DNA of 64,000 bases from Gemmatimonadota bacterium (lineage in GTDB: Bacteria > Gemmatimonadota > Gemmatimonadetes > Palauibacterales > KS3-K002). This document shows positions 34,201-53,388 of the stretch, piece by piece (position 1 is the stretch's first letter; every line of letters starts with the position of its first letter). The notes beneath the pieces were generated by a model, which was given only the letters and a program-made list of their open reading frames with translations, did not search any database and was not told the DNA's origin. A program made the translations under genes and the position numbers. The DNA lies in the NCBI GenBank assembly GCA_039586795.1, contig JBDHJS010000003.1:16358-80357 (forward strand), written 5' to 3'.

Positions 34201-36726
34201 GATGGTCAGACACAGCGTTACCGCATCGAGAAGGACCGACGCGACGCTAGGGTGATGACGATCTACGAGGGCACGAACGAGATCCAACAGTTCCTGTTGC
34301 TGAAGGATGTGATCGACATGGTCGGGCCGAGGCTGGACAAACTCGAGGAACTGGACGTCTCGGCTGAAGACTCGGTGTTCAAAGCCGAGGTCGATGCCCT
34401 GCGCGAGATGCACGCTGCGGTCAGGGAACGGGTGAAAGAAACACGTGCGACCTATAAGAGCGCCGCCTGGCAGCGCGCGTTGCTGCAGCCTGTGTTCTTC
34501 CGTCTGGCGCGAATGGTCGCGCTGCTGAAGACAGTGGACAGCGTTCTGCACCGCGCCGACTGGGTGGCGCGCAACCTCACGGCGGACGCGGACGCGTTCC
34601 GTCGGAGTTGGAGCGACAAGGCAGCGCGCGGCTTTGTCGCGAGAGCGCGCCGCGAGTTCATGCGGTTGGCGACGGGCTTTGATCGCGATTTCGAGACCTT
34701 GAAGGCGGGCGGCCGCACCGCCGAGTTGAAGCTGGCGGAGACGCTACTCGACGAAACGGAGATCGCCGCCGCGCACGGAAAGGCGGGCACCGGCGGGATC
34801 GAGAGGTCGCCGATCGATCGAGGTTTGGAGATCGTTGTAGCGCTGGAACGAGCGCCGCATTTGGCGCCGCGACCGCGCGTCATTGACGGCGAGCTGGCCG
34901 AGCACGTGTACGGATTCACGGCGGGAGACCGTCGTGCTCTGTCGATGGCTCTGGCTTTGAAATCGGCGTCGCCGGAGCGGGTCCGTGTGACGCTAGTATG
35001 TGCCGCGCCCGTGGAAGTGGAGGACGCGCTGCGCGCCGGGCTGGCCGCAGGCGCGGACCGGGCAATTCTGATCGACACGCGCGGGGAGTTGTACGAGGAG
35101 CATTCGGTTGCCGACGCGATCACCGGTGTTCTGCGACAACGCAACATCGATCCCGACCTGCTTCTTTCTGGCGCGTCGGAGGACGGCCCCAGCGGGGGCC
35201 GGCTCGGCCTCAGACTCGCGAGCGAATTGGACATCGAATGGGCCCCGAACGTGACCGAGCTGTGGGTGGACGGGAGCACGGCGGTAGTGACCAGCGAACG
35301 GTTTCCCGACAGCCTCATAAAGGCGGACCTGCCTGTTGCCGCATCGGTCGCGGGATCGGAAGGCGAGCCCGCTCCGGAGTTCACGGCCGCCGGTTTTGCG
35401 GAGGCGCTACGCAAAGACGTGGATGCCGTCCCGTTCCCAGACGACGCGGAACGCGCCGACGAGGAGCTAGCAACGACATCAGCACAGGCGACAACTGAGT
35501 CGCATGACGATGCCGGTCGCATCGATCCAGAGCGCGCCGCCGAGCTACTGGTTGAAGTCGGCGACCTGGGAGACGGCTCCGCCGTGCCGACGGGCGAACC
35601 ACATGCGGGAGCCATCGAGTCGGTCAGCGTCGACTCGTTGGATTGGCGCGGGGTGGTCTTCATCGCCGAGATCGAAGACGACAACCTGGTTAGAGACGCC
35701 AGAGCGCCGCTCGAGGCAGCGAGCGGCCTGGCAGAACGATCCTCTCTTCCACTATCGGGTTTGGTATTGAGCGAGCGTCTGTCCGATGACCGCCGTCGAG
35801 CGATCGCCGGACGCCTCGCCGCGCACGCGCCGTTCGGGCAGATCGTTTTCGCAGAGCACGATGCTCTGGGCGACGGCGCCTACCGCGCCTACGTCGAAGC
35901 ATTGGAGAAGCTGGTGGGGCCGGAATCCAGAACGCGCCCGACCTATCTAGTATCATCGCCGTGGCTGGCCGACGCGATGCCACCGCTGGCGGAGGTGCTT
36001 CGTCGATCCGACGTCGACGCGGACGAACTGGCCGGTGTTTCGCGGGTGGAGTTCCGCGACGGCGATGGTGTCGCGTTCGTCCAACCCGCGTACGAGCGTA
36101 AGTTGAGAGCACGACGTCACCTTCCTTACGCCGCTGACGCGATGCGGATCCTATGGTTCGAACCCGAAGTTACGTCGGAGCCAGGGGAAGCGACCTCATC
36201 GGATCCGACGGTAGTAGTGGTCGGCCTCGATCTGGACTACGATCCGCAAACAGATGCCCTGACCGAAGCGCTGCTCGAGGCAAAGAAGGCCCTTGGTGTG
36301 GTGACGTTGGAGAACGCCGAGTTCGTCATCGACGTGGGTGCCGGCCTGGGCTCCGTCGACAATCTGGACACGGTTGTGGAGCCATTGCGCCAAGCGCTGC
36401 TCGAGCTCGGGGCGCCGCACGTACTCATCGGCGCAACCCGCAAGGTGACGATAGATATGAGCTGGCTGCCGGAAGAGCTTCAGGTCGGGCAGACCGGCGT
36501 TCGAGTGAATCCGCGTATCATGATCGCGCTGGGCGTTTCAGGCGCGCCTCAGCACATCGACTGGGTGGGCGATCGCGCGGTGATCTTCGCGTTCAACATG
36601 GATGCGCAGGCGCCGCTGATGACGCTCAACCAGAGACGTGAACAGCCGAAGGTCTACCCGATCGTCGGCAACCTGCTCGAGACCGTCCCCCGCTTCATCA
36701 AGGCTCTGAAGCACGGACGCGATTGA
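28243..36726 (+). CDS. Giant multidomain flavoprotein: ETF-quinone oxidoreductase/FixC-like + FixX-like 4Fe-4S + divergent ACAD-like + acyl-CoA dehydrogenase + EtfB-like + EtfA-like (2,827 aa)
   Basis: Single uninterrupted ORF. Approximate aa positions: 14-400 FAD Rossmann (DVIIVGGGPAGITAAL) with ETF-QO/FixC similarity. 655-700 CP...CVKCETC 4Fe-4S. 900-1330 ACAD-like (ERAIDHARSRIQFP, YRDSSVFTHYIRENAE). 1480-2030 ACAD (FSLTEPSAGSD, MWITNG, IYEGTNEIQQ). 2160-2370 EtfB-like. 2450-2827 EtfA N- and C-domains (IALGVSGAPQHIDWVGDRAVIFAFNMDAQAPL, matching GISGAIQH...AINKD..API). Confidence 0.85.
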   Translation: MPLTNTSQEDMSAKLWDVIIVGGGPAGITAALRLAREDLDILVVEAAVYPGAENWSGAVYFAENLADPKVLGVDGLEAAPYEGRVVKRGFFSCNGLSMAGLEYENPETFKHCYTVLRPVYDRYLAEVARREGVTFLTETTVDGLIRRNDRVVGVHTDRGPVYGQIVFLAEGDASHLVSKEGFEGDAVRAKKNGQPAFLQGVKEVIQLEPEVIEDRFGVGPGEACCYEILLRNGVVDGKPVRLNMAGLLYTNRNSVSIGLVMPLDNLAEYRGDYNALMEWYKSLPPIARLIEGGEATSFGAKIIRSGGLAEMPRLVADGVVVGGAATGIGVDFPYPNFTGPATAMGRIFADAVLKLQSEGAEPRSGQLEELYVQPLKETSYYKDVDYLRDWPGFIEHTDALFSRQIDLLNGSSYAMTRPTLRFPHSWWETVRVVSETMKGRWSKTLKDLAGGSKALRMGRLIAKHMPAALLLSVPNTLLALMPFAYGKGPGKISLSFWVDGEESRTLPWYKRWSYARYRSALMKATAIVYANDGVPIRTKLDRAIGTLLRRFSLWEIVLGVLGVAVFWLTRGLQKLSDAIRYSRKKPTIEELTATFYGSWLTRWRAMTDLARAASTGQTHDAKLGEISYGGDVGSHIKVFFPPDKPGTLEDPSRSALWSVCPASVYQINVDRTMHASVAVNFENCVKCETCWRIEPQHVDWSRFGKHRLTYEVYTDADASLRQLLSERELRDTPEIEPSFWSATLTEAWPVGHVEASDALRSDITNARRAIDRAAAKCSELSDNIWLGPRVLEPGQVSWYISALEYFAVLADEAASVALSEPIEDWLIEHELAGAHLELLQAKRDLDLVTRGIREHAGSQKFFAGEADARQAAGHHLAGMREIIDRIALACRIPDDYVDPVAELRNQEQESPARAAAREELREHLAAIFDRGAIRRLEDGGSPEGAEIEALRESTRAALGDETQGAFDSWAPLTRSDILGELSRIDPSLAILVAGHLEGLAALEGAGATAKVIGPLKKVEVFVTLATEVAGQPGDGKWNGALPFALTALADRFVSRGEGQVAVFGLKSKGVKASITPAIGLTGAAASEILLKDAKPMWSGDWTEADETELFAARVRDAAAIALGSATILTERAIDHARSRIQFPDMFQDLDGRDGVGKFGAVRAHLSHIEASRLAIETILNDCDWTADSDLEAMVGKVAVTDLFGPDMPSITYRAGQVIGGSAFSEEDIFSKAYRDSSVFTHYIRENAELNVEIGSRISAGDGSLLATIAPDLSAALDVVARRPIFDFEVNRLREAEMQLAENMRGVLSQGQEPAVAEVVHDIAGELVTRLYVWARLMVRAYRRLEGALPAQRYLEAVQLWADIIEERLLGLEDELAQSAARIELGTDALQLDAYPDEPIATSGLDFDLDKDVIKGEVNYRSGDFLLKPFRIDETRYTPELQWVDDVTRNHYDEYLKEIRERFQTGRYKPSFERETERLHCIPREDIDWTVDRGYFRVVIPEEYGGQGRSKADYYNLCQIAKRHGDVSLTLTIQANTSIGTTPMLLGLDEVIAAERDLAGAVARAADVEAAKSEIEKLIEMMSMPDVDALAKKYMEIDKSVRSSIGKSRILKKVVFGKFQSAWGKAGAAGMKKDLVGFRKGLEKAVVALGGWQERVAAELDEMPRRRMAHEFFLRLISSRITSAFSLTEPSAGSDTARVRTEARLDSRSVLTDDDGVKHFYLDEDDPESRRNLADMRRFEFDGRRILYRYSDDADPAEVHSQEYTYSEDEEKYRYFMIGDRRVDIHDMAIVRERDGEEVYEFFVLNGAKMWITNGHIAGVNAIYARTPMGLTGFMVDALTDGFLVGKDEEKTGQRGSPTNEIGLTNVRIPRECMIGIEGRGQENALETLNVGRTGLCISSTAGIDQAIGDATAYLEETGRNSSAGVRYRLGLTMEEMYAVESIAYNLVGIYDDKTSDMPRVESSIAKLFGTEGLHRMLHFLEPVYGIDGQTQRYRIEKDRRDARVMTIYEGTNEIQQFLLLKDVIDMVGPRLDKLEELDVSAEDSVFKAEVDALREMHAAVRERVKETRATYKSAAWQRALLQPVFFRLARMVALLKTVDSVLHRADWVARNLTADADAFRRSWSDKAARGFVARARREFMRLATGFDRDFETLKAGGRTAELKLAETLLDETEIAAAHGKAGTGGIERSPIDRGLEIVVALERAPHLAPRPRVIDGELAEHVYGFTAGDRRALSMALALKSASPERVRVTLVCAAPVEVEDALRAGLAAGADRAILIDTRGELYEEHSVADAITGVLRQRNIDPDLLLSGASEDGPSGGRLGLRLASELDIEWAPNVTELWVDGSTAVVTSERFPDSLIKADLPVAASVAGSEGEPAPEFTAAGFAEALRKDVDAVPFPDDAERADEELATTSAQATTESHDDAGRIDPERAAELLVEVGDLGDGSAVPTGEPHAGAIESVSVDSLDWRGVVFIAEIEDDNLVRDARAPLEAASGLAERSSLPLSGLVLSERLSDDRRRAIAGRLAAHAPFGQIVFAEHDALGDGAYRAYVEALEKLVGPESRTRPTYLVSSPWLADAMPPLAEVLRRSDVDADELAGVSRVEFRDGDGVAFVQPAYERKLRARRHLPYAADAMRILWFEPEVTSEPGEATSSDPTVVVVGLDLDYDPQTDALTEALLEAKKALGVVTLENAEFVIDVGAGLGSVDNLDTVVEPLRQALLELGAPHVLIGATRKVTIDMSWLPEELQVGQTGVRVNPRIMIALGVSGAPQHIDWVGDRAVIFAFNMDAQAPLMTLNQRREQPKVYPIVGNLLETVPRFIKALKHGRD

Positions 36727-38248
36727 GCGGGAGGACGCCAAAGCGCCGGGCGAGAAGCCAGAGCAGCGATCCAGCTCCGATGACGACGAACAGGCAACGG
36801 AGCATCGTCCACGTTATGTCCGCACCCAGCCCAACCTCCGACTCCGGAACGAACCGCAGAACAAGGGCGACGGCGAGGAACACGATTGCGTAGGGCGCTA
36901 GGATAGATGCGATGAACGAGGCCGCCCTCACACCCGGCATCTCCAGTGCCCTGATCGCGGCGACCATGGTCAACGCGGAGTACGCCAGATAACCTGCTGC
37001 GGCGCCCCACGCTACACCGACGAGCCCGTACCCACCGAGAATCATGCCGGTCACGGCTCCGCCGGCTATTACGATCGCCGCGACCGTGAGGGCGACCAAC
37101 TGTTTCTGCCTGTTGAGCGATACGAGAACAACTTGCGGCATGCGCGTCAGCACCATGAAGAAGATCGCCGCAATGAGGACCTTCCCGGGAGTAATCGTCG
37201 GCGTGTACCTGGGCAGCAGCCAAACGATCGGCAGGTGAAAGGACAGGAAGAGGAGACCCAGCACCGGGCTGGCGAAATAGCTGAGAACCAGGCTGGGTCT
37301 CGTCAGGAAATCTTGAAGCTCACCGACCTCTTTCACTCTGGCGCTCTTCTCCATGAGGCGAGGATACAGCACGACCGAAACTGCCTCGGGCACCAGCATA
37401 ACGGAAACGACGAGATACGAACCCAGAGCATAGATTCCCATGCTCTCACGTGACATGAATATCCAGACGGCGATCTTGTCTACGTTCCATAATGTGATCA
37501 GCAGAGCGCCTGCAATCATGATCGGGAAGCCGATTCGCAGCAGTTCCCTCAGGGCGTCAAGATTCCACCGTGGACGAACGAACGGCGTGCTTCCTCCGCC
37601 CGCCCATAACAAAGCAGCGGCATATGAAAAGATCACGGCGACCAGAAAACCAGGCAGTCCGTAGCGCAGCGCTGCGAGTACCCCACCGACGCTAGACAGA
37701 AGCGCGAAGCCGACCATGATTCGCCCAGCCTGACCGAACCGCTTCCTGGCTCGCAACTTGACGTGCGCGAACCAATACAGTTGAGCCAGCGCGTGTAAAA
37801 CGGCGAGCATCAGCCATGCAACGCGCAACTCCGTCGACCAACCCCGCAAGAAGGTTAGCACGAATGCGGCGATCACAATCGCAAAGACCGCCGCACTGAG
37901 CATCGAGAACCCGAACACCGTGCTCTCGATCCCGCTCGCCCGCTCCTCGTTTCCAGCGCCCGCCGCATGAGCCACTTCACGAAGCAGCGCTTCGTTAACG
38001 CCTAGTTGTCCGTATTGGAGGAACTGGAGCGCGATCTTTATCTGTGACCAGACACCGAACAGCGCCGGCCCCAGGACCCGCGCGAGCAGCAACCCGCGCA
38101 GCAGGAAGAGGAACTCAGAGAGGTAACGCGCGATGGAATAGTCCGAGAAGTGCGCCCAGACAGACCGTTCGCTATCCGCGAGGTCCAATACCGCGGGCGC
38201 GGTGCGGCCGCCCGTTTCATCGTTAGCAGCAGGGGGCAATTCGGACAT
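36698..38248 (-). CDS. Polysaccharide biosynthesis protein / oligosaccharide flippase (Wzx-like, MOP superfamily)
   Basis: 516 aa with about 12-14 predicted TM helices and N-terminal similarity to Wzx/RfbX flippases. Its 3' end overlaps the giant gene's 3' end by 29 nt (convergent). Confidence 0.65.
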   Translation of the reverse strand: MSELPPAANDETGGRTAPAVLDLADSERSVWAHFSDYSIARYLSEFLFLLRGLLLARVLGPALFGVWSQIKIALQFLQYGQLGVNEALLREVAHAAGAGNEERASGIESTVFGFSMLSAAVFAIVIAAFVLTFLRGWSTELRVAWLMLAVLHALAQLYWFAHVKLRARKRFGQAGRIMVGFALLSSVGGVLAALRYGLPGFLVAVIFSYAAALLWAGGGSTPFVRPRWNLDALRELLRIGFPIMIAGALLITLWNVDKIAVWIFMSRESMGIYALGSYLVVSVMLVPEAVSVVLYPRLMEKSARVKEVGELQDFLTRPSLVLSYFASPVLGLLFLSFHLPIVWLLPRYTPTITPGKVLIAAIFFMVLTRMPQVVLVSLNRQKQLVALTVAAIVIAGGAVTGMILGGYGLVGVAWGAAAGYLAYSALTMVAAIRALEMPGVRAASFIASILAPYAIVFLAVALVLRFVPESEVGLGADITWTMLRCLFVVIGAGSLLWLLARRFGVLPLNRVRASEP

Positions 38249-38374
38249 CGCATGGTTTGTTGGTGACCGAAGCGCTCGCTCACTGTTAGGGTCAACGGTA
38301 CACTGGCCGACAGGCGTCGGGATGGCAAGCGCGAGGCCAGCGACAGCTCAGTGTCGCTGGCGCAGTCCCTGGTC

Positions 38375-39604
38375 TCAGGAGGGATCGTGAATGACGCCGA
38401 TGAAGAGGATGGTGCCGGAGAAGCGTTCACGGATCGCGAAGAGAAACGGCCTATCGACACGCACAGCCATCGGCGCGCTGGTAACACCCACCTCGACAGA
38501 GGTGACAGCGGCCGCCTCGGTGCCCTCTTCGTTGACATCGACAAAGGTCTTGTGTTTGACTTTGCTGATGAAGAGCTGAGCCTGGTCGTTGATCCTGGAG
38601 AAATCGGCGTTCAGTTCGTCGAAGGCGATCTCCATGCCGAGGGCCTTCAGCGCTTCGTTCAACTCGATCTCGTACTCGAGGGTGAACTTGGGGAGGTACA
38701 CCTCCATTTCAGCGGCCAGCAGCCCGTCGATCCAACCCTGCCATGTGGCCGCGTCAATCGAAGCGACCAGCGAATCGATGTCACGACCACGGTCCGGCAG
38801 AACGATCGTCATGCTATACGCCTTACCGCCATACGGAAGGTCGGCTACAAGAACGCCTTCATCGTAGTAGGATCGCAATTCCGCTTCGCCGCCGTGGGTC
38901 ATCATCGGCACCTGGACCGTACCGCCGTCGGCCAGGGTGAAGACGCCAGGCGCGGTCCGATCCGGATCGAATTGGGTGGTCCAGTTCCCCTTGAAGTAGA
39001 TGGCATTGATGAGGAACATGATGATCTCGGGCGCGATCGCATCGACAATCTCACTGATCCGACCGTTGGTTTTATCGTCTACCCAGCTGTTGATGATCCC
39101 CGGTGCGCCAGGGTCGTCGAAGTCGAGCGTCGCCACCTCGGCGTCGAAGTGCTCGATGTTTACATCGATGAAATCCTGTTCGACGGGAAAGTTCTCACGA
39201 ATCCAGATCGAGTTGGCCAGAGTGAACTGCACGGAAGAGTCGAGGTTAGCAAGAAGATCGATCAGGCTGCGATAGGAGTCGTTTACGTCATCGATCGATA
39301 GCCCCTGTAGCTCGAGCGTCTCTTGCATAGCCTCGAGCGTTGTGCCATCGGCGCCGTTGTATACCATGCCGAGCGCCATGGCGACGCTGAGCGGTGATAG
39401 AAAGATGTTGGCACCAACTTCCTCGCCCTGATGAACTTCGCGGAAGAGCTTGAGGCCGAAGCTGTTGTCCGACTCGATGAGCTGCTCTTCACCCGCTTCG
39501 AGGTCGCGAGGAAGCCCTTCGATCTGCGGATTCTGGATATCTTCGTCGCATCCCAGCGCGACCAGCACCCAAAGACCCGCTACGATAGCTGTGAGTCGTC
39601 TCAT
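38375..39604 (-). CDS. Serpin (serine protease inhibitor) family lipoprotein
   Basis: Lipobox LVALGC. Serpin blocks NIFLSPLSVAMALGMVYNGA and C-terminal PFLFAIRERFSGTILFIGVIHDP; the ~400-aa length fits. Confidence 0.8.
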   Translation of the reverse strand: MRRLTAIVAGLWVLVALGCDEDIQNPQIEGLPRDLEAGEEQLIESDNSFGLKLFREVHQGEEVGANIFLSPLSVAMALGMVYNGADGTTLEAMQETLELQGLSIDDVNDSYRSLIDLLANLDSSVQFTLANSIWIRENFPVEQDFIDVNIEHFDAEVATLDFDDPGAPGIINSWVDDKTNGRISEIVDAIAPEIIMFLINAIYFKGNWTTQFDPDRTAPGVFTLADGGTVQVPMMTHGGEAELRSYYDEGVLVADLPYGGKAYSMTIVLPDRGRDIDSLVASIDAATWQGWIDGLLAAEMEVYLPKFTLEYEIELNEALKALGMEIAFDELNADFSRINDQAQLFISKVKHKTFVDVNEEGTEAAAVTSVEVGVTSAPMAVRVDRPFLFAIRERFSGTILFIGVIHDPS

Positions 39605-42980: not shown

Positions 42981-44000
42981 GTGGATATGGTGGGATTAGA
43001 GCCGAATCGTCCGCCACTGGTGCTGGTAGCGAATGATGAGGAATGGTGGGCCCGATCGCTGGAGAGCCTGCTGTCGCCTGGAGGATATGCCATCCTCCGC
43101 GCCTATACGGGCAGACAGACTCTGGAGCGGGCACACGAGGTGGGGCCCGACCTGATTATCCTTGACGCGAGCCTACCCGACATACCCGGCATCGAGCTGT
43201 GCCGACGGCTGCGCAGCGACCGTCGAGTCAGTAGCGCGACGCCGATCCTGATCACGACAGCCGGCCGCTGCACCAGGGAAGAGCGACTGGAGGCGCTGAG
43301 CGCGGGCGCATGGGACTTCATCGGTCTGCCGTTGGACGCCGATGACCTGATCTTGAGGCTCAACGCTTACATGCGGGCCAAGCTGGAAGCCGAGCGTACG
43401 AAAGAGGAAGGTCTCATCGACCCCCTCACCGGCCTGTACAACCTACAGGGCCTGAGGCGTCGAGCCCGCGAACTGGGCACAGATGCTTATCGGCACGGCC
43501 GGGCGTTGGCCTGCGTTGCCCTGGCCTTGAGGATAGAAGATCCCTCCAACTCTGACAGCTCCGATGTCTTCTGGGACGCGATAGACAGGGCTGGCACCGT
43601 GCTACGCGACTCGGGTCGCATCTCCGACGCCATAGGTCGGATCCGTGATGGCGAGTTCGTGATCATCGCACCGGAGACGGACGACACCGGCGCGCACCAG
43701 CTGGCGCAGCGGTTGTCGACCGAGGTCGAAGAGATCATGGCCGTCGGTGAGAGTATGCCTCCCGTTCAGGTGCTCGCGGGATACAGTGCCGTACCCAACC
43801 TTCAATCCGCCGGCGTTCGGCCGAGCGCCATATTGGCAAACGCGAAGATGGCGCTGAGCCGCTTGCAGGCACAGCCCGGCGGATCGGGAGTCCTCCGGTA
43901 CGAAGGAGACTACGACGACAGTGATCTGGATGATGGCGGAGATCTGGGGCAGAGCCTGGCTGACATAACTGTGGAGCCACAGCGTCACGCTACGCACTGA
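42981..44000 (+). CDS. Response regulator: receiver domain + degenerate GGDEF domain
   Basis: Receiver (LIILDAS...); GGDEF fold starting DPLTGLYN, with the active-site GG(D/E)EF replaced by RDGEF. Paralog of 52421..53347. Confidence 0.7.
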   Translation: MDMVGLEPNRPPLVLVANDEEWWARSLESLLSPGGYAILRAYTGRQTLERAHEVGPDLIILDASLPDIPGIELCRRLRSDRRVSSATPILITTAGRCTREERLEALSAGAWDFIGLPLDADDLILRLNAYMRAKLEAERTKEEGLIDPLTGLYNLQGLRRRARELGTDAYRHGRALACVALALRIEDPSNSDSSDVFWDAIDRAGTVLRDSGRISDAIGRIRDGEFVIIAPETDDTGAHQLAQRLSTEVEEIMAVGESMPPVQVLAGYSAVPNLQSAGVRPSAILANAKMALSRLQAQPGGSGVLRYEGDYDDSDLDDGGDLGQSLADITVEPQRHATH

Positions 44001-44027
44001 CAGAAGGCTGGACTTGCTGTTAGGGAA

Positions 44028-46964
44028 TCACTTCCAGAGACGGACGTGATTTCTACGCTGGTGCTCGCGGAAGGATTCGATGCGAGCGTCGACTCCCGCG
44101 AGATCTTCGTCAATCGCCCTTCCTAAGCGGCCTTCGCCGTTGCCGTTGCCATTCCCACTCCCGTTCCCGTTCCCGTGGCTGTTCCCCTCTTCGTTGCTAT
44201 CAACCTGCCAATCGAGGATTTCGAAGTCGGTGATTTCGAGATCGGCAACTTCCACAGGTTCCACTTCCTGGATGACCGACTCGATTTCCAGATCCAGTAG
44301 TTCATCGAGCCGCGAATACCGAGACGCATTGAAGTCGACCTGAATCTCCGCAGCGATCGGCAACTCACTTCCGTTTCCGTTCCGCTTTCTGTTGCCGCTG
44401 TGAGTGCCGTTACCGTTGTTCCTTCCGTTTCCGTTGCCATCGGGGAGCGTGACCCGTTCCACGCGGTCGACCTCGGTCCGCGGATCGACCTTCGGGGGTT
44501 CAGTCTGCGAGTCGTCGACGGACGCGCCTTCACGGAGGTCGATGCTCCGCTGTATCCGTTTTCCGGGCAGCGCGCGCTTGGCCTCGTCAGGCAGATACAA
44601 GCTAGCGTAAGCCTTACGATGGTAACGATAGACGCCAACGTGTGGAACGTCGTTGAGGATCGCGCCGAGTAGCCGGACCGGCAATCGAGCCAGCGAATCG
44701 AGCCGCCATTCCGTCGCGGACCGATTGGTCGTACCCGTTCGGACGACCAACACCATGTTGCGGGTGAGCGTGCCGAGAGCCAGCGGGTCGGCACAAGCTG
44801 CGAGGGGCGGCGTGTCCACCAGGATCACGTCGTACTCCTTACGCATCTGAGCCAAGAGATAAGTCATGGCCCGAGATTGCAGCAATTCGGGCCCATCCTG
44901 ACGGCGGGTCCCGCTGGCTATTCGAGAGAGTGCCCTGTGACTGGTCGAACGCACGACCTTCTCTAGCGGCGCGTTGCCGGCGAGATAGTCGGTAAGTCCT
45001 GGCTTGCGGCCGCCGCCCAACAGGCGATGCTGGGAACCGCGTCGAACATCGGCGTCGATGATCAGCGTGCGGTACCCCATGCCGGAAAACGCCATTCCCA
45101 AGTTGGCCAGCACGAACGACTTACCATCCTCGGGCTCGGGGCTGGTTACCGACAGGACCACGGGCCCAGCCGTCCCGTGGGCGTGAGCGACGTTGAGGCG
45201 AATGACCCTGAAGGCCTCGACGACCTGTGCTGCCTTGAGGGCGCTCAGCCCGCGGGAGCCGTTGTTCACGTGTGGCACGGAGCCGATGACCGGCACGCCA
45301 AGACCGTCGCTAACTTGCTGAGGGTAACTCAGTCGCGTGTCCAAGAAGTCCAGAAGAATGCCGACGCCCACCGCGATACACAGGCTGGCCATGAGAGCCA
45401 TGAGGATGAACTGCTCTTCCTGGCTCTCATTGATCGGCTGCTGCGGCGGGAAGGCGGCGTCCATGACGCGGACATCTGGAATACTGCTCTCCGCGGCGAG
45501 GTGTGCTTCATCGCGGCGCGCCTGGAGCGTATTGAAGAGATTGGCGGCGATCGCTACCCTGCGCTCCAGCCGCGCCTCACCGATTGCCCGCATCGGAGTC
45601 CTGCGCAACTCATCGGCCGCGGCCACGATCATGCTCTCGAGAATCACTTCCCGATCGGCGAGCGTCCGAGAAAGATCGGCGGCCAGGCGGGGCACCGTCG
45701 ATGTCTCGAGTGATTGGATCTCGCTTCTAAGGTCCCGGACGGCCTGGTGCTCTTCCGTGTAGCGATTGAGCTGCGAGCGCAACTCGGATCGCTTTGACGT
45801 GAGCTCGCCCATCGCCAGAACCAGATCAGAGGATGCTCTCACAGACGGGATGATCTCGAGCCCCTCGATCGAGGGTCCAGATTCCGACGCGTTCCTCAGC
45901 ACACGATCGATTGACCAACGATCGCGTCTCAGCTGTTCACGCTCGATCAGCAAGCTCGAGTAGTTCGAGAAGGCGGACTCGCGTGTCGACTCGACTCCAG
46001 GCGCGACCGGCGTGGCGCGCTGCGCCGGGAGTGTGATGGTCCTGACCCGAAACGACTCGAGCTCACCCTCAGCCTCAAGCAGTTGCTGATGGGCCTGCGA
46101 CAGTTGCTCGTTCAGAATGCGGGTGGATTCGAGGAGCCTTTCACGCTTGAGGTCATGCACGACCTGCACGTAGCGCTGGCTCACCGCGTTGAGCACTTCC
46201 GAGATCTGAACCGGATCCTCGCCCGTCAGGCTGAGGTTGAGGAATGTATGCTCTGAATCGATTTCGGTATTGATGCGCTCGCCGAGACTCCTGGCGACGT
46301 CTCGCAAGCTCTCGACACTGAACTCTATGTCGCCCCCGAGGGCCGACACACGCTCCAGAGTTTCCTGGCCTGTTAGCGGACCGCTCAAGTCGTCGATCGC
46401 GCCCTCATGCACCAGCTTGTCGCCAGCGGCAATCAGCTGGAAACGGCGGCCGTCAGGATCGACGGCGAGTCGGTAATGGCCGGCCGCCAGACCATCATCC
46501 AGCTGGAACTGGGCGAGCAGGTTAGCTTCCTGCGGCGAAGCGGCTCTGAGATACAGGCGCAGGTCGCCGACGACTTCGTCGAGCACCCGGTACGATCGGA
46601 GGAGCTCTACCCATGCGGCACCGGCCTGAAGCAGCTGGCCCGTCTGCACAGGTGCCTGCTCGTTGGCGCGGCTATCGCTAGGCTCGATCCAGATGGTCGT
46701 TTGCGCTTTGTACTGGGGCTTTATCTGGTGAGCCAATGCGAATCCGCTCGCCGAACCCAACACGGCAACCAGCAAGACAACCCAGCGGTAGCGCCACACC
46801 GCGACTATGAATCGACGCCAGTCCAGCGAAGAAGCGAGCGGGAGCTCGTGTGCGGCGCTGCCGTTTGACGGGCGTGCACCATTACCACGACCTGCACCGT
46901 TCCCCTGCGGGGTCGTGTGATGCGGCAGTTTCCTGCCGTTATGGCTGGTGAACGCGCTGGGCAT
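44028..46964 (-). CDS. Polysaccharide co-polymerase/tyrosine autokinase (Wzc/GumC-like BY-kinase), copy 1
   Basis: Wzz-type N-terminal TM plus a periplasmic coiled region. P-loop kinase domain SVTSPEPEDGKSFVLANLGMAF (Walker A), IIDADVRRG. C-terminal Tyr cluster YRYHRKAYASLY. Start chosen at MPSAFTSH by alignment with the paralog; the ORF is open up to 47303. Confidence 0.75.
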   Translation of the reverse strand: MPSAFTSHNGRKLPHHTTPQGNGAGRGNGARPSNGSAAHELPLASSLDWRRFIVAVWRYRWVVLLVAVLGSASGFALAHQIKPQYKAQTTIWIEPSDSRANEQAPVQTGQLLQAGAAWVELLRSYRVLDEVVGDLRLYLRAASPQEANLLAQFQLDDGLAAGHYRLAVDPDGRRFQLIAAGDKLVHEGAIDDLSGPLTGQETLERVSALGGDIEFSVESLRDVARSLGERINTEIDSEHTFLNLSLTGEDPVQISEVLNAVSQRYVQVVHDLKRERLLESTRILNEQLSQAHQQLLEAEGELESFRVRTITLPAQRATPVAPGVESTRESAFSNYSSLLIEREQLRRDRWSIDRVLRNASESGPSIEGLEIIPSVRASSDLVLAMGELTSKRSELRSQLNRYTEEHQAVRDLRSEIQSLETSTVPRLAADLSRTLADREVILESMIVAAADELRRTPMRAIGEARLERRVAIAANLFNTLQARRDEAHLAAESSIPDVRVMDAAFPPQQPINESQEEQFILMALMASLCIAVGVGILLDFLDTRLSYPQQVSDGLGVPVIGSVPHVNNGSRGLSALKAAQVVEAFRVIRLNVAHAHGTAGPVVLSVTSPEPEDGKSFVLANLGMAFSGMGYRTLIIDADVRRGSQHRLLGGGRKPGLTDYLAGNAPLEKVVRSTSHRALSRIASGTRRQDGPELLQSRAMTYLLAQMRKEYDVILVDTPPLAACADPLALGTLTRNMVLVVRTGTTNRSATEWRLDSLARLPVRLLGAILNDVPHVGVYRYHRKAYASLYLPDEAKRALPGKRIQRSIDLREGASVDDSQTEPPKVDPRTEVDRVERVTLPDGNGNGRNNGNGTHSGNRKRNGNGSELPIAAEIQVDFNASRYSRLDELLDLEIESVIQEVEPVEVADLEITDFEILDWQVDSNEEGNSHGNGNGSGNGNGNGEGRLGRAIDEDLAGVDARIESFREHQRRNHVRLWK

Positions 46965-47447
46965 CGTTTCGGTGCCGGATGCCTGGCTGAGGGTTCTGGC
47001 GGGTAACCATTCCATCCAGCAACAGGGATGCCGCTGGGCCGAGTTTTCCACAAAACGCTGAAAGGCGTTGGAAGATAAGGTGTTTGCGGCACTGGCAGGG
47101 GTCGGTGCTGGAAGTGGGAATGTGGTGTGTAGACGCAGCGCTACAGATCGGCCCCGTAGGCGGGATAGGGTGTGGCTTTGGTCCGACCCTCTAGGGAGGA
47201 CCGCGGTCACGTCGGCTTTACTATTGACATTTCTCTCTTTCATCCGTACTGTTGCATTCCCGCTGCTTCTGCGACGTCGGCTCCACAGTTCGCGTCGCTC
47301 CACGTCGGCCCCATCGCCGCAGCAGGTAAGCGGGCCTACGTAGACTTTGGGCCGCCGGTCCCGCCACGGCTGAAGTTCTCAACGGATCTCACAGGACGTT
47401 CTATCGCCACTTCGCGGTGCGCGATCCTGAAACGTGGGAGGCTCCCG

Positions 47448-48983
47448 ATGCCCCGTGCCCTGTCCGGCATACGCTCCGACAGCGTAAGCCCCTTTGTGCC
47501 CGCCGACACCGAGTTTGAAGAGAGAGCAGATTTCGCTGACGCCCCGAGAACGTCGCTGCGTCTCGTCGTGATCGACGATGAACGGACGTTGAGGGAGAGT
47601 TGCGCCAGCATACTGGAAATCGATGGCCACGACGTCACCAAGGTGAGTCGAGGCGACCAGGCCCTGGACCTTCTGCGTCGCCGCAGGTTCGACGTGGCCC
47701 TGATCGATCTCAACATGTCAGAGACCCACGGTCTCGATCTGTTGCGGGCCGGCCTGAAAGCGAACCCTGACATGATCCCGATCATGATCACGGGTAGGCC
47801 AAGCGTGGACTCGAACCTCGAGGCGCTGCAAGCGGGCGCGTGGGATTACCTTCCCAAGCCATTCTCAGCCAGCCAGTTGCAGCTTTTGATCGGGCGCGCC
47901 GCTCACGCGGTGGTATCGTCACGAGAGATCGGCGAGAAGCAGAAACAGCTGGAAGGCGCGCACGACCATGGCGAGCAGGTAACGTTGCTGGGCGTGTCGT
48001 CGGCGTTTACTCGCGTGATAGAAACTGCCCGACAAGTGGCCCGCACCGACGCCTCGGTGTTCATCACGGGTGAGAGTGGAACGGGCAAAGAGCTGATCGC
48101 CCAATTCATCCACCACCACAGTCGGCGCAGCCGGCGAATGCTCGTTCCCCTGAACTGCGCGGCGCTGCCGGAGACGCTTCTGGAGTCGGAGATGTTCGGG
48201 CATTGCAGAGGCTCGTTCACGGGAGCGGACCGCGACAAGCCGGGGTTGTTGGAAGTCGCGGACGGCGGAACGATGTTCTTGGACGAAGTGACGGAGATGT
48301 CGCACGCGACCCAAGCCAAGTTACTTCGTGTTCTTCAGGACGGCGTGCTGCGGCGAGTTGGAAGTACCAAGACCGACGCGGTAGTGAACGTACGGTTCAT
48401 CGCTGCCACGAATCGCGAGCCGGCGCAGGCGGTGGAGGATGGAGATATGCGACAGGATCTCTTCTTCCGCCTCAAGGTCGTACCGATCAGGATACCGCCA
48501 CTCCGTGAGCGGCCGGACGACATACCGGTTCTGGCGAACCACTTCTTGATGCATTACTGGAAAAGGCATCGCGACGTAGGCGCGGAGTTGCCCCGTTTCT
48601 CAACCGGCGCGATGTTGGCCCTGCAGACTCGTGCCTGGCCGGGCAACGTGCGGGAGCTACAGAACGCGATCGAGCACGCAGTCGTGTTCCTCGAGCCCGG
48701 GATGGAGATTACGGCGGCTGACATCCCGTCGATCCAAGGCGCTGAGGAAGCGATGGTTTCTGCCCCGATGGGGTTCCGCGGATTCGACGAGCCTTACCAC
48801 GCCGCGCGCGAACGGCTGACGGCTGAATTCGAGAAACGCTATTTGACCGCAATGGTAAACCGTGCTGGCGGCAATATGTCCGAGGCTGCTCGACTCGCCG
48901 GCATCGACCGTACGACGATCTATCGTTTGATGGAAAAGCACGGACTGGATCGCGAAGAGATCGTTCTGGACTCCGGAATGTAA
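47448..48983 (+). CDS. Sigma-54-dependent response regulator (NtrC/PrsR-like), copy 1
   Basis: Receiver (LVVIDDERTL...D), AAA+ GESGTGKE and GAFTGA-like sigma-54 interaction motif (GSFTGA), C-terminal HTH. Start at 47448 preceded by GGGAGG; the ORF-track start at 47172 is likely an upstream extension. Confidence 0.8.
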   Translation: MPRALSGIRSDSVSPFVPADTEFEERADFADAPRTSLRLVVIDDERTLRESCASILEIDGHDVTKVSRGDQALDLLRRRRFDVALIDLNMSETHGLDLLRAGLKANPDMIPIMITGRPSVDSNLEALQAGAWDYLPKPFSASQLQLLIGRAAHAVVSSREIGEKQKQLEGAHDHGEQVTLLGVSSAFTRVIETARQVARTDASVFITGESGTGKELIAQFIHHHSRRSRRMLVPLNCAALPETLLESEMFGHCRGSFTGADRDKPGLLEVADGGTMFLDEVTEMSHATQAKLLRVLQDGVLRRVGSTKTDAVVNVRFIAATNREPAQAVEDGDMRQDLFFRLKVVPIRIPPLRERPDDIPVLANHFLMHYWKRHRDVGAELPRFSTGAMLALQTRAWPGNVRELQNAIEHAVVFLEPGMEITAADIPSIQGAEEAMVSAPMGFRGFDEPYHAARERLTAEFEKRYLTAMVNRAGGNMSEAARLAGIDRTTIYRLMEKHGLDREEIVLDSGM

Positions 48984-48995
48984 GCGGAAGATCTG

Positions 48996-50129
48996 ATGGA
49001 AGTCGTTCACCCGCCACGGCCAACCGAACACGACGCCGGCCTGGACGTCCAGCCGCGGAATCTGTCTGCGGCTGCGCTCCAGTTCGCCAAAGTGCCGAAC
49101 CGTGCTCTGCTCGCGGCGGCCCAGGGCGTGATGACCCGTTGGCAGGACGCCCTCGGCACGGTGACGCCGTGGCCAGCGGCGGCGGACGAACTCGCCCGGC
49201 TTACGATAGCGGTGCACGAAATCGCGTCCAGCGGTGAAGCGGCGCTAGAGCTACCGATCGGTACTCCGTTGCGGCGGCAGTTGCTGGCGCTGCTGGAGAC
49301 CGAGGTCGAAGAGTGCCGCGGCAGGATTTGCTCCGACGCCGAGGTAGACGAGCTCAAGGACGCTTTCACCGTCGTGCATGGCGCGTTGGAATGCGAGGAC
49401 ATGCAGGAGGTGGAGGCTCGGCTGGCCAGCCCGGACGGGCCCGAGCTGCTCGCTGAGGTCGCCCACGATCTGCGCTCCCCGCTGACATCCATTCTGACAC
49501 TCGCCGATGCGCTCCGTAGCGGCCGTAGCGGCGACGTGAACGGAGTTCAGCAGCGTCAACTCGGACTGATTTACAGCGCGGCGCTGGCGTTGAGTTCGAC
49601 GGCGAGCAACCTGATAGAGCTGGCCCATGGAGGCGATCGCCTTGCGCAAAAGGAGCCTTCGCCGTTCTCGATCCTCGAGATCATGGAGTCGGTTCGCGAC
49701 GTGCTGCTGCCGATGGCCGAAGAGAAAGAGATCGAGCTACGCTTCGCGCCTGGCGACAATCAGCGTCGGCTTGGCTATCCGCTGGCGCTTTCCCGCGTTC
49801 TGCTGAACCTGGCGACGAACTCTCTGAAGTTCACCGAAGAAGGGTACGTGGAAGTCACGGCGCGCCCGCTCGACCCGACGCACGTGGAATTCGCAGTGCG
49901 CGACACCGGCAAGGGGATCAGCGCTACCGCCGTGGACACGCTTTACCAACCGTTCCGGCGCTCGCCCGCCAGAGACGGCTACTTCTTCTCGGGGACCGGA
50001 CTGGGACTCATGATCTGCCGCAGGCTGGTGGAGGCGATGGGTTCGAGGTTGGAGTTCGAGACGCGACCGGATTGGGGCACCCGATTCTACTTCGAGCTCG
50101 AGCTGCGGCAGGTAGACGAATTCGTCTGA
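48996..50129 (+). CDS. Histidine kinase (soluble)
   Basis: H-box AHDLRSPLTSI; catalytic domain with DTGKGI and GTGLGLMI boxes. No TM segments. Confidence 0.75.
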   Translation: MEVVHPPRPTEHDAGLDVQPRNLSAAALQFAKVPNRALLAAAQGVMTRWQDALGTVTPWPAAADELARLTIAVHEIASSGEAALELPIGTPLRRQLLALLETEVEECRGRICSDAEVDELKDAFTVVHGALECEDMQEVEARLASPDGPELLAEVAHDLRSPLTSILTLADALRSGRSGDVNGVQQRQLGLIYSAALALSSTASNLIELAHGGDRLAQKEPSPFSILEIMESVRDVLLPMAEEKEIELRFAPGDNQRRLGYPLALSRVLLNLATNSLKFTEEGYVEVTARPLDPTHVEFAVRDTGKGISATAVDTLYQPFRRSPARDGYFFSGTGLGLMICRRLVEAMGSRLEFETRPDWGTRFYFELELRQVDEFV

Positions 50130-50150: not shown

Positions 50151-51263
50151 CTAACTTCGCGAGACAATCCCCCTTACGATCACATCGGCGATCCGCTCCG
50201 CAGCTTTCCCATCCCAGAGTTCCGGCGCCTTCTTCAAAGGCCGGCTACCGTTCCTCTTTTCGGTGGCCTGCAGGGCAGCTCCGACAATCGCATCCGCCTC
50301 GAGGCTGACCAAACGATTGGTGCCCTGCTCCACCGTAACCGGACGCTCGGTGTTGAGACGAAGCGTGACACACGGGACTCCGAGGACGGTGGTCTCCTCC
50401 TGGATACCCCCCGAATCGGTGAGCATGACCGCCGCCTCCGACATAAGAGCCAGAAACTCCTGATATCCGAGCGGATCGATCAAGCGCACGCGCCCCAGCT
50501 TTGAGCGCAGCCCGAACGAATCGAGTTTGCTCTGCGTTCTCGGGTGCACGGGAAAGACCACGGGCAGTGTCTCCGCGACATCCGCCAGGGCGTTGACTAT
50601 CGGTTCGAGCGATTCGGGGCTGTCCACATTGGACGGCCGGTGTAACGTGACCAGCGCGTAGCTTCGCTCCGACAGGTCGTAGCTGGCCAGCGTCTTCAGC
50701 GTCGGAACGTGCTCGAGCTGTTTCAGCAGCGTGTCGATCATCACGTTTCCGACAAAGTGAATCCGGTCTTCGGACACGCCCTCTTTCTTCAGGTTCTCGT
50801 TGGCAGCACGCTCAGTCGTGAAAAGGAAATCGGACAGACGATCGGTGACCACGCGATTAATCTCTTCCGGCATGCCCCAGTCGAACGAGCGGAGTCCGGC
50901 TTCGACGTGCGCCACCGAGATTCCCAGCTTGGCTGCGACCAGCGAGCATGCGACTGTCGAGTTCACATCGCCCACAACGACCACGAGGTCAGGCTGGCGC
51001 TCCAGGCAGATGGGCTCGAACGCCTGCATGACGCGAGCCGTCTGTTCCGCATGAGTGCCCGATCCGACACCGAGATCCACATCCGGTCGTTGAATTCCGA
51101 GCTGGTCGAAGAAGATCTTTGAAAGGGCCTCGTCGTAGTGCTGGCCGGTATGAACGAGTATCTGCTCGACCTCGGGATAGGCGCGAAGCGCCTCCATAAC
51201 GGGCGCTATCTTCATGAAGTTGGGCCGCGCGCCCGCTACGTGTAGAACTCGCCGACTCGTCAT
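50151..51263 (-). CDS. wecB: UDP-N-acetylglucosamine 2-epimerase (non-hydrolysing)
   Basis: Conserved N-terminus (LHVAGARPNFMKIAPV, HTGQHYD, VVGDVNSTVA) and C-terminal blocks typical of WecB/MnaA. Confidence 0.85.
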   Translation of the reverse strand: MTSRRVLHVAGARPNFMKIAPVMEALRAYPEVEQILVHTGQHYDEALSKIFFDQLGIQRPDVDLGVGSGTHAEQTARVMQAFEPICLERQPDLVVVVGDVNSTVACSLVAAKLGISVAHVEAGLRSFDWGMPEEINRVVTDRLSDFLFTTERAANENLKKEGVSEDRIHFVGNVMIDTLLKQLEHVPTLKTLASYDLSERSYALVTLHRPSNVDSPESLEPIVNALADVAETLPVVFPVHPRTQSKLDSFGLRSKLGRVRLIDPLGYQEFLALMSEAAVMLTDSGGIQEETTVLGVPCVTLRLNTERPVTVEQGTNRLVSLEADAIVGAALQATEKRNGSRPLKKAPELWDGKAAERIADVIVRGIVSRS

Positions 51264-51281: not shown

Positions 51282-52145
51282 TTAGCGACGGAGAACCCGG
51301 TCGACCAGAATGATGATGCTGGTAACCGCGGCTGTGTAACTTATGATTTGGCCGAACGTGAAGACCGGCCGCCTGGGGACTTCGATCGAATCGCCCTCGC
51401 GCAACTGAAGCGCATCGAGCGTTTCCCCAAGGGCGAGGGCGAGCTCGAGCTCCTTCCCCTCCAGCACCGTGCCGTCCGCACGCCTGACCTTCAGCTTGTG
51501 GAGGTTGGCCGCCGTCGTCGGCCCACCCACTGACATGATCGCGTCCGGCAGCGGAGTCTCGATAGGTAACATGTGGTAACCCGGCTGCAGAATCTCTCCG
51601 GCGAACGTAAGCCGCACGTAGGTCCGGGCTCTCACGTCGGGCTGAGCGACGAATCGACTCAGCTGCTGTGTGAGATACGGCTGAAGCTCCGTCCGTAGAA
51701 CGCCCCTGAGGGAAATCGCCCCCACCACGGGCAACTCGATGGCCGGACCTGCCGTGACGACGAAGGTATCGGTGAGCTGCAGCTCACCCTCCACCACCAT
51801 CACCACTCGATCGCCTACGCGGAAATCCCCCTGCTGCAAACGCCGGCGGACGATCGCCGCCTCGCCCCTCGCTTTCTCGCGCAGCACCGGGCTATAAGCC
51901 TGCGACCGGGCTCCGTTCTCGAAAAACGTTGCCAGCTGCTCCAGCGTGTCGCGCGTCGCGCCGACGCCGGGAATCTGCCACGGATCCTGCTGGGCACTGA
52001 GTTCAGCCGGGTGAACCGCACCAGCGATGAGTACAGCTGTAAGAGCTACGATCGACAGTCGAGACACGGTACCTCCAAGAGTCGAATTCCCTTGCACAGC
52101 CACACGCCCGCACGGATTCAAGATTGAGGCCGAACGTGGCGACAC
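51282..52145 (-). CDS. Polysaccharide export protein (Wza/EpsA-like, SLBB domain)
   Basis: Signal/TM; the motif FRVGDRVVMVVEGELQLTDTFVVTAGPAIELPVVGAISLRG is typical of Wza-family polysaccharide export proteins. Confidence 0.7.
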   Translation of the reverse strand: MSPRSASILNPCGRVAVQGNSTLGGTVSRLSIVALTAVLIAGAVHPAELSAQQDPWQIPGVGATRDTLEQLATFFENGARSQAYSPVLREKARGEAAIVRRRLQQGDFRVGDRVVMVVEGELQLTDTFVVTAGPAIELPVVGAISLRGVLRTELQPYLTQQLSRFVAQPDVRARTYVRLTFAGEILQPGYHMLPIETPLPDAIMSVGGPTTAANLHKLKVRRADGTVLEGKELELALALGETLDALQLREGDSIEVPRRPVFTFGQIISYTAAVTSIIILVDRVLRR

Positions 52146-53347: not shown

Positions 53348-53388
53348 CTGATCCTCGAGATGTTAAGCCTGCCTTCAGTCTACTTGCA

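Follow-up and report, generated by a model that had tools for sequence, protein, structure and literature searches.

Two receiver-GGDEF proteins in the window

The window analysed here is a 64,000-nucleotide stretch of contig JBDHJS010000003.1 (assembly GCA_039586795.1, a Gemmatimonadota bacterium), and our subject is a pair of paralogous proteins that it encodes, RRdG1 and RRdG2, in which a receiver-like domain precedes a GGDEF domain with a degenerate signature motif. An original prediction, concerning positions 43380..44000, the C-terminal two thirds of the RRdG1 gene, regarded both as response regulators paired with Wzc-like tyrosine kinases. The two genes, their domains and the residues that bear on their function are:

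42987..44000, + strand: RRdG1, 337 amino acids; receiver-like domain, linker helix and degenerate GGDEF domain (Pfam, AlphaFold2)
43014..43340, + strand: receiver-like domain of RRdG1, residues 10-118 (PleD alignment, column counts)
43413..43886, + strand: degenerate GGDEF domain of RRdG1, residues 143-300 (Pfam, PleD alignment, AlphaFold2)
43617..43628, + strand: RxxD motif of the RRdG1 inhibitory site (I-site), R211-I-S-D214, equivalent to PleD R359..D362
43644..43658, + strand: degenerate active site (A-site) of RRdG1, R-D-G-E-F, residues 220-224, at the position of PleD GGEEF
43710..43712, + strand: RRdG1 R242, third I-site residue, equivalent to PleD R390
52421..53347, + strand: RRdG2, 308 amino acids, paralog of RRdG1 (open reading frame, Pfam, pairwise alignment)
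53057..53068, + strand: RISD motif of the RRdG2 I-site, R213-I-S-D216, at the PleD R359..D362 position
53150..53152, + strand: RRdG2 R244, at the PleD R390 position

The open reading frame (ORF) of RRdG1 spans 42981..44000, with a GTG at 42981 as an alternative start two codons 5′ of the ATG at 42987. The ATG is the likely start, because a 100% identical database protein of 337 amino acids (P0001) begins there. RRdG1 and RRdG2 are 55% identical over their full length. Both match Pfam Response_reg above the curated cut-off (E values of 3e-18 and 5e-17; 66 and 63 bits) and Pfam GGDEF (PF00990; E values of 6e-9 and 2.5e-7; 36.3 and 31.0 bits, cut-off 23.8), and the GGDEF domain of RRdG1 opens with DPLTGLYN (43419..43442). 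An AlphaFold2 model built with 62 homologs, with a mean predicted local distance difference test score (pLDDT) of 89, comprises a receiver, then a helix of 24 residues, then a GGDEF fold. The top Foldseek matches were WspR, PleD and DgcR (E values of ~1e-20 to 1e-22); over the whole chain, DgcR in complex with cyclic di-GMP (c-di-GMP; 6zxm) superposed best, at template modelling (TM) scores of 0.61/0.68, and comparison with isolated GGDEF domains gave TM scores of up to 0.86 on the target (5euh). The GGDEF fold that had been claimed for both paralogs is thus borne out. Identity to the PleD/PopA lineage is ~20%, and by descent RRdG forms a side line of the receiver-GGDEF proteins of the WspR/DgcR/PleD type.

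Relatives were compared at several depths. A first family alignment held 62 sequences with a mean column identity of 55%, the close-relative set holds 195 non-redundant sequences, and the deeper set, drawn from an exhaustive HMMER search, consists of cluster representatives at 50% identity (147 for the receiver, 144 for RxxD and 143 for the third arginine); in that search, 2,444 cluster representatives scored E<=1e-30, not every one a member of the family. Clustered at 50% identity, the family numbers at least 147 clusters, and it is present at no fewer than 351 genome loci. Synteny was counted at the best 80 of these 351, one genome per species being scanned; these loci come from Gemmatimonadota metagenome-assembled genomes throughout, two oddly labelled bins excepted. 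Their ORFs were profiled with the window's own proteins, and denominators differ for each neighbour (50, 65, 70 or 79). Judged by this distribution, RRdG is a real and sizeable family that is specific to the Gemmatimonadota. A comparison with NCBIfam and Pfam profiles revealed no curated family model that covers it, and our literature search found no paper on the RRdG family, on Gemmatimonadota c-di-GMP receptors or on the coupling of such a degenerate GGDEF protein with a bacterial tyrosine kinase (BY-kinase).

Two family-specific patches are invariant: one formed by receiver helix 1 and strand 5 (EW..RSLES, GAWDF), the other by the arginine-rich first helix of the GGDEF domain (RRARELG...R). 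In RRdG1 numbering, the residues concerned are W20, R23, W109, D117, R159, R161, E162, R169 and C176. These patches are candidates for docking surfaces or for a secondary c-di-GMP site.

The active site is lost

A HMMER alignment that is gapless across the signature places RDGEF of RRdG1 on PleD G368-G369-E370-E371-F372, and RLGEF of RRdG2 (53084..53098) occupies the same column. Because GG[DE]EF occurs in neither RRdG protein nor in any window ORF of at least 80 amino acids, all of which were scanned, there is no intact motif elsewhere in the sequence to suggest that the degenerate motif had been misplaced. The intact motif is likewise found in 0 of the 195 close relatives. The substrate residues have gone the same way: in RRdG1, PleD D327 (metal) is replaced by Ala, the acidic E370 (metal) by Gly, K442 (phosphate) by Gln, and D344 (guanine) by Trp, the last within a stretch around PleD N335/D344 that is unconserved in the family consensus and where the alignment is less certain. 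The E and F of the signature are retained in 188 and 187 of the 195 sequences, respectively. Scores against the NCBIfam models of active cyclases fall far below their cut-offs, at 89-92 bits versus 474 for PleD (NF007135) and 69-70 versus 500 for DgcR (NF047654).

The alignment to PleD therefore confirms the loss of the A-site, and diguanylate cyclase activity, which the original prediction had called unlikely, is very unlikely given the change of GG to RD or RL, the replacement of E370 by Gly, the loss of the D327, D344 and K442 equivalents and the absence of GG[DE]EF from all close relatives. By signature, substrate residues and equivalog scores alike, RRdG stands outside the active-cyclase families. 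A role as a receptor for guanosine triphosphate (GTP) was rejected, because the A-site residues that would hold this substrate are gone.

The inhibitory site is invariant

PleD R359, D362 and R390 form what we take, from the PleD structures, to be the primary inhibitory site, which binds c-di-GMP. All three residues are present in both paralogs, and the I-site is intact. RISD lies exactly five residues N-terminal of the degenerate signature in RRdG1 and RRdG2 alike, and an RxxD motif five residues before the signature is how an I-site was recognised in PMC2952852. The third arginine (R242 or R244) follows the signature phenylalanine by 18 residues, a PleD-like spacing. The equivalents of R359, D362 and R390 are invariant in the first alignment (62/62) and among the close relatives (195/195), and the deeper representatives retain RxxD in 144 of 144 and the third arginine in 143 of 143 sequences, a triad conserved throughout the family amid A-site positions that adjoin it and vary freely.

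Since the I-site triad is invariant and the A-site has decayed, the ligand would be c-di-GMP at the I-site and not GTP at the A-site. A receptor role, as named in the original prediction, is strongly supported; of the two ligands mentioned there, c-di-GMP is the one to which the residues point, and GTP, whose site has lost its substrate residues, is not. The pattern of conservation argues for selection on c-di-GMP binding alone, in that it is what such selection would be expected to leave. Degenerate GGDEF proteins that bind c-di-GMP at the I-site include PopA and PelD (PMC12564702) and SgmT (PMC4877007), and Gemmatimonadota carry genes for c-di-GMP turnover, GAU1030 among them (PMC2952852). 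On the evidence of its two sites, the working principle of RRdG appears to be of the PopA/PelD/SgmT kind, in which a degenerate GGDEF domain has an I-site and does not catalyse.

The receiver domain has decayed

The original prediction had suggested that RRdG links a phosphorelay, with the neighbouring soluble histidine kinase, to co-polymerase activity. In the receiver of RRdG1, D60 (CheY D57) and T90 (CheY T87) are kept, and N16 and L114 stand at the positions of CheY D12 and K109; RRdG2 also keeps D60 and T90 and has W114 at the K109 position. Lysine at this position was found in none of the 195 close and none of the 147 deeper sequences. The D12 position is Asn in 178 of 195 close relatives, and the D13 position is Asp in 128 of 195, being non-acidic in about a third. 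Across the deeper family, the acceptor aspartate is present in only 93 of 147 sequences (37% are without it) and the threonine at the T87 position in 77 of 147, yet the I-site stays perfect.

Receiver decay beside a perfect I-site implies that phosphorylation is not the conserved function of the family, and phosphorelay input to RRdG is weakened as a proposal. The receiver fold is, to judge from these positions, largely phospho-dead and probably serves as a dimerisation or docking module, with some possibility of phosphorylation-type switching for the two window proteins.

Gene context was examined for five deep relatives without the acceptor aspartate, three of them on short contigs, of which only one (L087) was informative; there, RRdG is followed by a sigma54 regulator. 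At a further locus (L082), a kinase, an exporter, RRdG and a convergent Wzc fragment lie near one another. Both of these relatives have retained the customary gene context. At a third (L083, 4992..7662), a 150-residue ORF two genes downstream of the RRdG relative matches CpsB/CapC (PF19567), presumably a phosphotyrosine phosphatase family that partners BY-kinases.

Neighbouring genes form two modules

The genes around RRdG1 and RRdG2 are:

36698..38248: flippase-like gene, flanking the region
44028..46964, - strand: Wzc1, Wzc-like BY-kinase and polysaccharide co-polymerase of the PCP-2a class (Pfam, TIGR01007); ORF to 47303, likely ATG at 46964
47448..48983, + strand: sigma54-dependent response regulator 1 (receiver, AAA+ and HTH_8 domains), divergent from Wzc1; ORF from 47172, first ATG at 47448
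48996..50129, + strand: soluble histidine kinase (HisKA and HATPase_c; Pfam), N-terminal ~145 residues without a domain match
50151..51263, - strand: UDP-GlcNAc 2-epimerase, wecB (TIGR00236, 343 bits, above cut-off)
51282..52145, - strand: Wza-like polysaccharide export protein (Poly_export and SLBB; Pfam), divergent from RRdG2
53389..56118, - strand: Wzc2, Wzc-like BY-kinase (Pfam, TIGR01007); ORF to 56226, likely ATG at 56118
56611..58164, + strand: sigma54-dependent response regulator 2 (68% identity with regulator 1), with no kinase gene after it
58480..59244, + strand: initiating sugar transferase (Bac_transf; Pfam)

The initiating sugar transferase marks this as a polysaccharide assembly locus. 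The trio of RRdG, Wzc and regulator occurs twice (42987..48983 and 52421..58164; 55%, 51% and 68% identity between the copies), with wecB and the exporter between the two modules and a single kinase after the first copy. Because the trio is duplicated and the kinase is not, the specificity of RRdG would be tied to Wzc or to the regulator rather than to the kinase. Two RRdG copies are also present in the metagenome-assembled genome CAWETG01 (loci L048 and L060). The histidine kinase is soluble, as had been proposed: 48996..50129 encodes no transmembrane-like segment, and the highest 19-residue hydropathy mean is 1.37.

Each Wzc gene is convergent with its RRdG gene, across gaps of 27 nt (Wzc1) and 41 nt (Wzc2). 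Both proteins match Pfam Wzz, GNVR and P-loop families, have a periplasmic domain between two transmembrane-like segments, and exceed the TIGR01007 tyrosine autokinase cut-off of 108 bits (119 for Wzc1, 125 for Wzc2). Their Walker A' motifs read LIIDADVR and LVIDGDVR and their Walker B motifs VILVDTPP and VVLLDTPP; the Walker A motif is PEDGKS, with GK[ST] retained and the preceding glycine not; and 4 (Wzc1) and 6 (Wzc2) tyrosines cluster within 25 residues. The kinase domain of Wzc1 lies at about residues 690-900 of its ORF. We call them Wzc-like and not Wzc orthologs because they score 149-170 bits against a cut-off of 1068 for the E. coli Wzc equivalog. Beyond the tyrosine cluster, both carry low-complexity tails of ~120-190 residues (Wzc1, 44028..~44600, - strand; Wzc2, 53389..~53750, - strand); the Wzc1 tail has GNGNG repeats together with runs of acidic residues, and the Wzc2 tail has an acidic stretch and ends in basic residues. 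Such C-terminal tails are atypical of E. coli Wzc.

Elsewhere in the window, an uninterrupted ORF of 2827 amino acids (28243..36726, + strand) joins an FAD-oxidoreductase motif at its N terminus to the N, M and C domains of acyl-CoA dehydrogenase and to the two electron-transfer-flavoprotein domains, ETF and ETF_alpha; dehydrogenase and electron acceptor are thereby fused in a protein of unusual size. A full-length bacterial serpin (38375..39604, - strand; Pfam Serpin, E value of 4e-112) and an angiotensin-converting-enzyme-like M2 peptidase (20465..22261, + strand; E value of 7e-97) are encoded as well; serpins and M2 peptidases are uncommon in bacteria. At 12470..15156 (- strand), there is a further sigma54-dependent response regulator, the third in the window, which shares 38% identity with the other two, is accompanied by a GAF-domain histidine kinase and adjoins an ABC-2 transporter operon. 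Two large ORFs beyond the sugar transferase (59365..60675, - strand, 436 amino acids; 60914..62764, + strand, 616 amino acids) have no Pfam match.

The gene neighbourhood is conserved across Gemmatimonadota

Related loci share a stereotyped cassette of exporter (- strand), RRdG (+), Wzc (-), sigma54 regulator (+) and kinase (+), often followed by wecB. Wzc is convergent with RRdG and directly downstream of it at 58 of 70 loci, with a gap of less than 200 bp at 56, and a divergent Poly_export gene lies upstream of RRdG at 56 of 65. The original prediction had spoken of a strict pairing with Wzc; this holds for both copies in the window (2/2) and not across the related loci, where the figure is 83% (58/70). 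The association is real and far beyond chance, and it is not strict. Within 9 kb of RRdG a Wzc gene was found at 45 of 50 loci, and within 6 kb a sigma54 regulator at 47 of 50, so that RRdG has the two-component pair beside it at least as constantly as it has Wzc. RRdG belongs to a Gemmatimonadota-wide cassette for polysaccharide export and its regulation.

sigma54-type elements precede Wzc and not RRdG

Upstream of each Wzc gene in the window lies a sigma54-type -24/-12 element:

47019..47033, - strand: CGGCATCCCTGTTGC, upstream of Wzc1
56223..56237, - strand: CGGCATCGTGCTTGC, upstream of Wzc2

Both elements read CGGCAT-N5-TTGC and stand ~50 nt (Wzc1) and ~100 nt (Wzc2) before the first plausible ATG. 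In relatives, where the consensus is CGGTAY-N5-TTGCA, the element was found upstream of Wzc at 29 of 49 loci versus ~3 expected, with a motif background of 0.046 per kb per strand. It also precedes the exporter at 14 of 79 loci; in the window, no convincing element was found upstream of the exporter gene. Upstream of RRdG it was found at 3 of 79 loci, which is the chance level, and scans for sigma70 promoters and intrinsic terminators around both RRdG genes yielded nothing above shuffled sequences. Across the whole window, sigma54-like motifs are unenriched (43 versus 52 expected), and the weight of this result therefore lies with the position of the elements upstream of both Wzc genes and with their recurrence at 29 of 49 loci. 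Since the element precedes Wzc and not RRdG, a sigma54 promoter controlled by the divergent regulator probably drives Wzc, and RRdG would be expressed independently of that regulator.

Similar elements occur elsewhere in the window: TGGCACGCACCTCGC at 20216..20202, upstream of an ABC ATPase gene; a near-consensus element, CGGCACCTCGCTTGC, at 60839..60853 (- strand), before the 436-residue ORF mentioned above; and TGGCCTCGCGCTTGC at 38339..38325, preceding the flippase-like gene.

RRdG as a probable c-di-GMP receptor of the cassette

We favour, with a probability of roughly 0.6, the reading that RRdG1 and RRdG2 are receiver-GGDEF proteins which no longer catalyse, act as c-di-GMP receptors through the intact I-site and bring the input of this messenger to the polysaccharide cassette. 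The kinase and sigma54 regulator would activate Wzc, and often the exporter too, at sigma54 promoters, and RRdG, which has no such promoter, would sense the cellular level of c-di-GMP. An intercalated c-di-GMP dimer at the I-site may alter the RRdG dimer or the arrangement of its domains, upon which RRdG would bind or release a cytoplasmic partner from the cassette, and polymer assembly and export would track c-di-GMP. The messenger's input through RRdG would, on this proposal, enter the cassette post-translationally.

Several observations weigh against this reading or against Wzc as the partner. Conservation of the I-site bears on c-di-GMP binding indirectly. In our ORF scan, the window encodes no active cyclase. 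The clade to which the window proteins belong retains D57 in 184, T87 in 192 and the aromatic switch (Y106-type) in 179 of its 195 sequences. The deep relative at L083, which is without the acceptor aspartate, has no cassette genes nearby. At 10 of 70 loci, it is the sigma54 regulator and then the kinase that lie directly downstream of RRdG, on the same strand, and four of these ten (L008, L035, L079 and L080) have no Wzc nearby despite a full 10-kb flank. RRdG and Wzc, being convergent, are not co-transcribed. Finally, mirror-tree co-variation, calculated from 38 loci that hold all five genes, recovered its positive controls (regulator-kinase 0.48, Wzc-exporter 0.54) and gave partial correlations of 0.42 for RRdG-Wzc, 0.34 for RRdG-kinase and 0.18 for RRdG-regulator. 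When the proteins were split into domains, the RRdG GGDEF domain correlated at 0.38 with the periplasmic part of Wzc and at 0.19 with its cytoplasmic kinase domain, and the RRdG receiver at 0.06 with the kinase domain. We rejected this signal as evidence of contact between RRdG and Wzc, since it maps to the periplasmic part and follows evolutionary-rate classes, and gave it no weight, because a cytoplasmic RRdG cannot touch the periplasmic part of Wzc.

Among possible partners of such a receptor, the adjacent Wzc, with its cytoplasmic kinase domain as the binding site, ranks first by a narrow margin. Wzc is favoured by immediate adjacency (58 versus 10 loci) and by co-duplication, and the two-component pair by the four loci without a nearby Wzc and by the theme of c-di-GMP input to sigma54 activators (PMC4877007); the kinase itself is disfavoured as the specificity partner because a single, unduplicated copy serves two RRdG genes. 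In its most specific form, the proposal would make RRdG a c-di-GMP-loaded adaptor on the kinase domain of the adjacent Wzc, controlling oligomerisation or tyrosine autophosphorylation, with each RRdG matched to its own Wzc. This form is tentative, and as a complete statement we rate it as unlikely. To our knowledge, it would be the first direct post-translational c-di-GMP switch on a BY-kinase/co-polymerase of a Wzx/Wzy-type pathway.

The alternative that survives best keeps the receptor and changes its target: c-di-GMP-loaded RRdG could bind the sigma54 regulator or, instead, the soluble kinase and tune the transcription of Wzc and the exporter, supplying in trans the input that FleQ, VpsR and EpsI/Nla24 receive directly. 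The near-constant presence of the regulator within 6 kb (47/50), the ten loci with RRdG, regulator and kinase on one strand, sometimes with no Wzc within 10 kb, and the duplication of the regulator along with RRdG in the window all fit such a role, as does the recurrent control of polysaccharide genes by c-di-GMP through the sigma54-type activators EpsI/Nla24, FleQ and VpsR (PMC4877007). The largest mirror-tree partial correlations of the RRdG receiver, taken domain by domain, with the kinase (0.44) and the regulator receiver (0.31), point the same way, weak and rate-confounded as they are. Against this, Wzc lies directly next to RRdG five to six times as often as the regulator does (58 versus 10 of 70), and the helix-1 residues of the RRdG receiver and the regulator receiver are dissimilar by eye, which argues against a shared mode of docking on the kinase. 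No degenerate GGDEF protein is known to us that acts as the co-regulator of a sigma54 activator, and we consider this alternative somewhat unlikely.

It is very unlikely that the pathway is a branched one in which a single kinase serves two regulators, RRdG being the second, ordinary and dependent on phosphorylation; the GGDEF domain would then be a protein-interaction output with no c-di-GMP role. A kinase and regulator pair does lie close by at nearly all loci, and the retention of D57-, T87- and Y106-type residues in the window's clade also speaks for such a pathway. It would, however, leave unexplained why the I-site triad is invariant in all 339 sequences (195 and 144) amid the decay of the nucleotide site, and it accords poorly with a K109 lysine that is absent from every member, with the non-acidic D13 position in about a third of close relatives, and with the 37% of deeper relatives that are without the acceptor aspartate yet keep the I-site and, where visible, the gene context; moreover, the window has only one kinase for two RRdG copies. 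That RRdG, its altered motif notwithstanding, retains some residual or unconventional activity as a nucleotide cyclase, for which the intact fold and the retained E-F of the signature (188/195 and 187/195) might speak, is improbable in the extreme, given the loss of the second glycine, of E370, of the D327, D344 and K442 equivalents and of the variable guanine-binding stretch, a combination of A-site losses with which we know of no active cyclase.

Comparison with known systems

The preferred reading, RRdG as a catalytically dead c-di-GMP receptor, has parallels in several described proteins. PopA of Caulobacter crescentus likewise joins receiver folds to a GGDEF domain with a degenerate A-site and an RxxD I-site that binds c-di-GMP, and its output is protein interaction or localisation in place of catalysis (PMC12564702). 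PopA, however, has two receivers and acts in cell-cycle proteolysis, whereas RRdG has one receiver without the K109 lysine, is encoded in a polysaccharide export locus, and is predicted, from its residues, to bind c-di-GMP. PelD of Pseudomonas aeruginosa also has a degenerate GGDEF domain, which binds c-di-GMP at RxxD (PMC12564702). Its gene, too, lies within a polysaccharide locus. Unlike RRdG, PelD is anchored in the membrane, is part of a synthase-dependent pathway and carries a GAF domain in place of a receiver; RRdG is soluble and adjoins Wzc and Wza components of a Wzx/Wzy-type pathway. SgmT of Myxococcus xanthus binds c-di-GMP without cyclase activity through a degenerate GGDEF domain in a two-component setting and affects the extracellular matrix (PMC4877007); its GGDEF domain is C-terminal and fused to a hybrid kinase, whereas RRdG is a separate protein. 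WspR, DgcR and PleD, the best structural matches, share with RRdG the architecture of receiver, helical stalk and GGDEF domain and have the I-site triad in the same positions; they differ in their intact GG[DE]EF, full receiver chemistry and activation by phosphorylation.

At the level of the locus, the EpsI/Nla24, FleQ and VpsR systems also combine polysaccharide genes with a sigma54-type activator of their own and c-di-GMP input (PMC4877007); there the activator itself binds c-di-GMP, whereas the site predicted here is on a separate receiver-GGDEF protein. XrtA/PEP-CTERM loci resemble the cassette in their sigma54 response regulator, kinase, tyrosine autokinase with chain-length determinant, and exporter, and their NCBIfam models are among the top matches. 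The XrtA-system models that we compared, TIGR02915 (PrsK/PrsR set), TIGR03018 (kinase), TIGR03007 (chain-length determinant) and TIGR03027 (exporter), all remain below cut-off (355 versus 503, 110 versus 231, 97-127 versus 279 and 25 versus 180 bits), and no exosortase was found among the window ORFs scanned. Membership in the PEP-CTERM/XrtA group was rejected, as every specific model falls below its cut-off, and we know of no receiver-GGDEF protein in a described XrtA system.

Implications

RRdG is most likely a new, phylum-specific family within a well-known class of c-di-GMP effectors, its members sensing the messenger in the service of slime production. It offers a clean natural example of which GGDEF residues persist under receptor-only selection and an example of a receiver domain drifting into a pseudo-receiver. 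c-di-GMP directly gates synthase-dependent polysaccharides such as cellulose, alginate, Pel and poly-N-acetylglucosamine, the production of Pel being gated post-translationally by PelD, whereas the known c-di-GMP input to Wzx/Wzy/Wzc-type capsule and slime pathways is mostly transcriptional. If RRdG only modulates the regulator, it would lengthen the list of degenerate GGDEF effectors modestly. With a perfectly conserved, predicted c-di-GMP pocket beside Wzc and a sigma54 regulator across a poorly studied soil phylum, RRdG is a concrete candidate for a route by which c-di-GMP may enter Wzx/Wzy/Wzc-type pathways.

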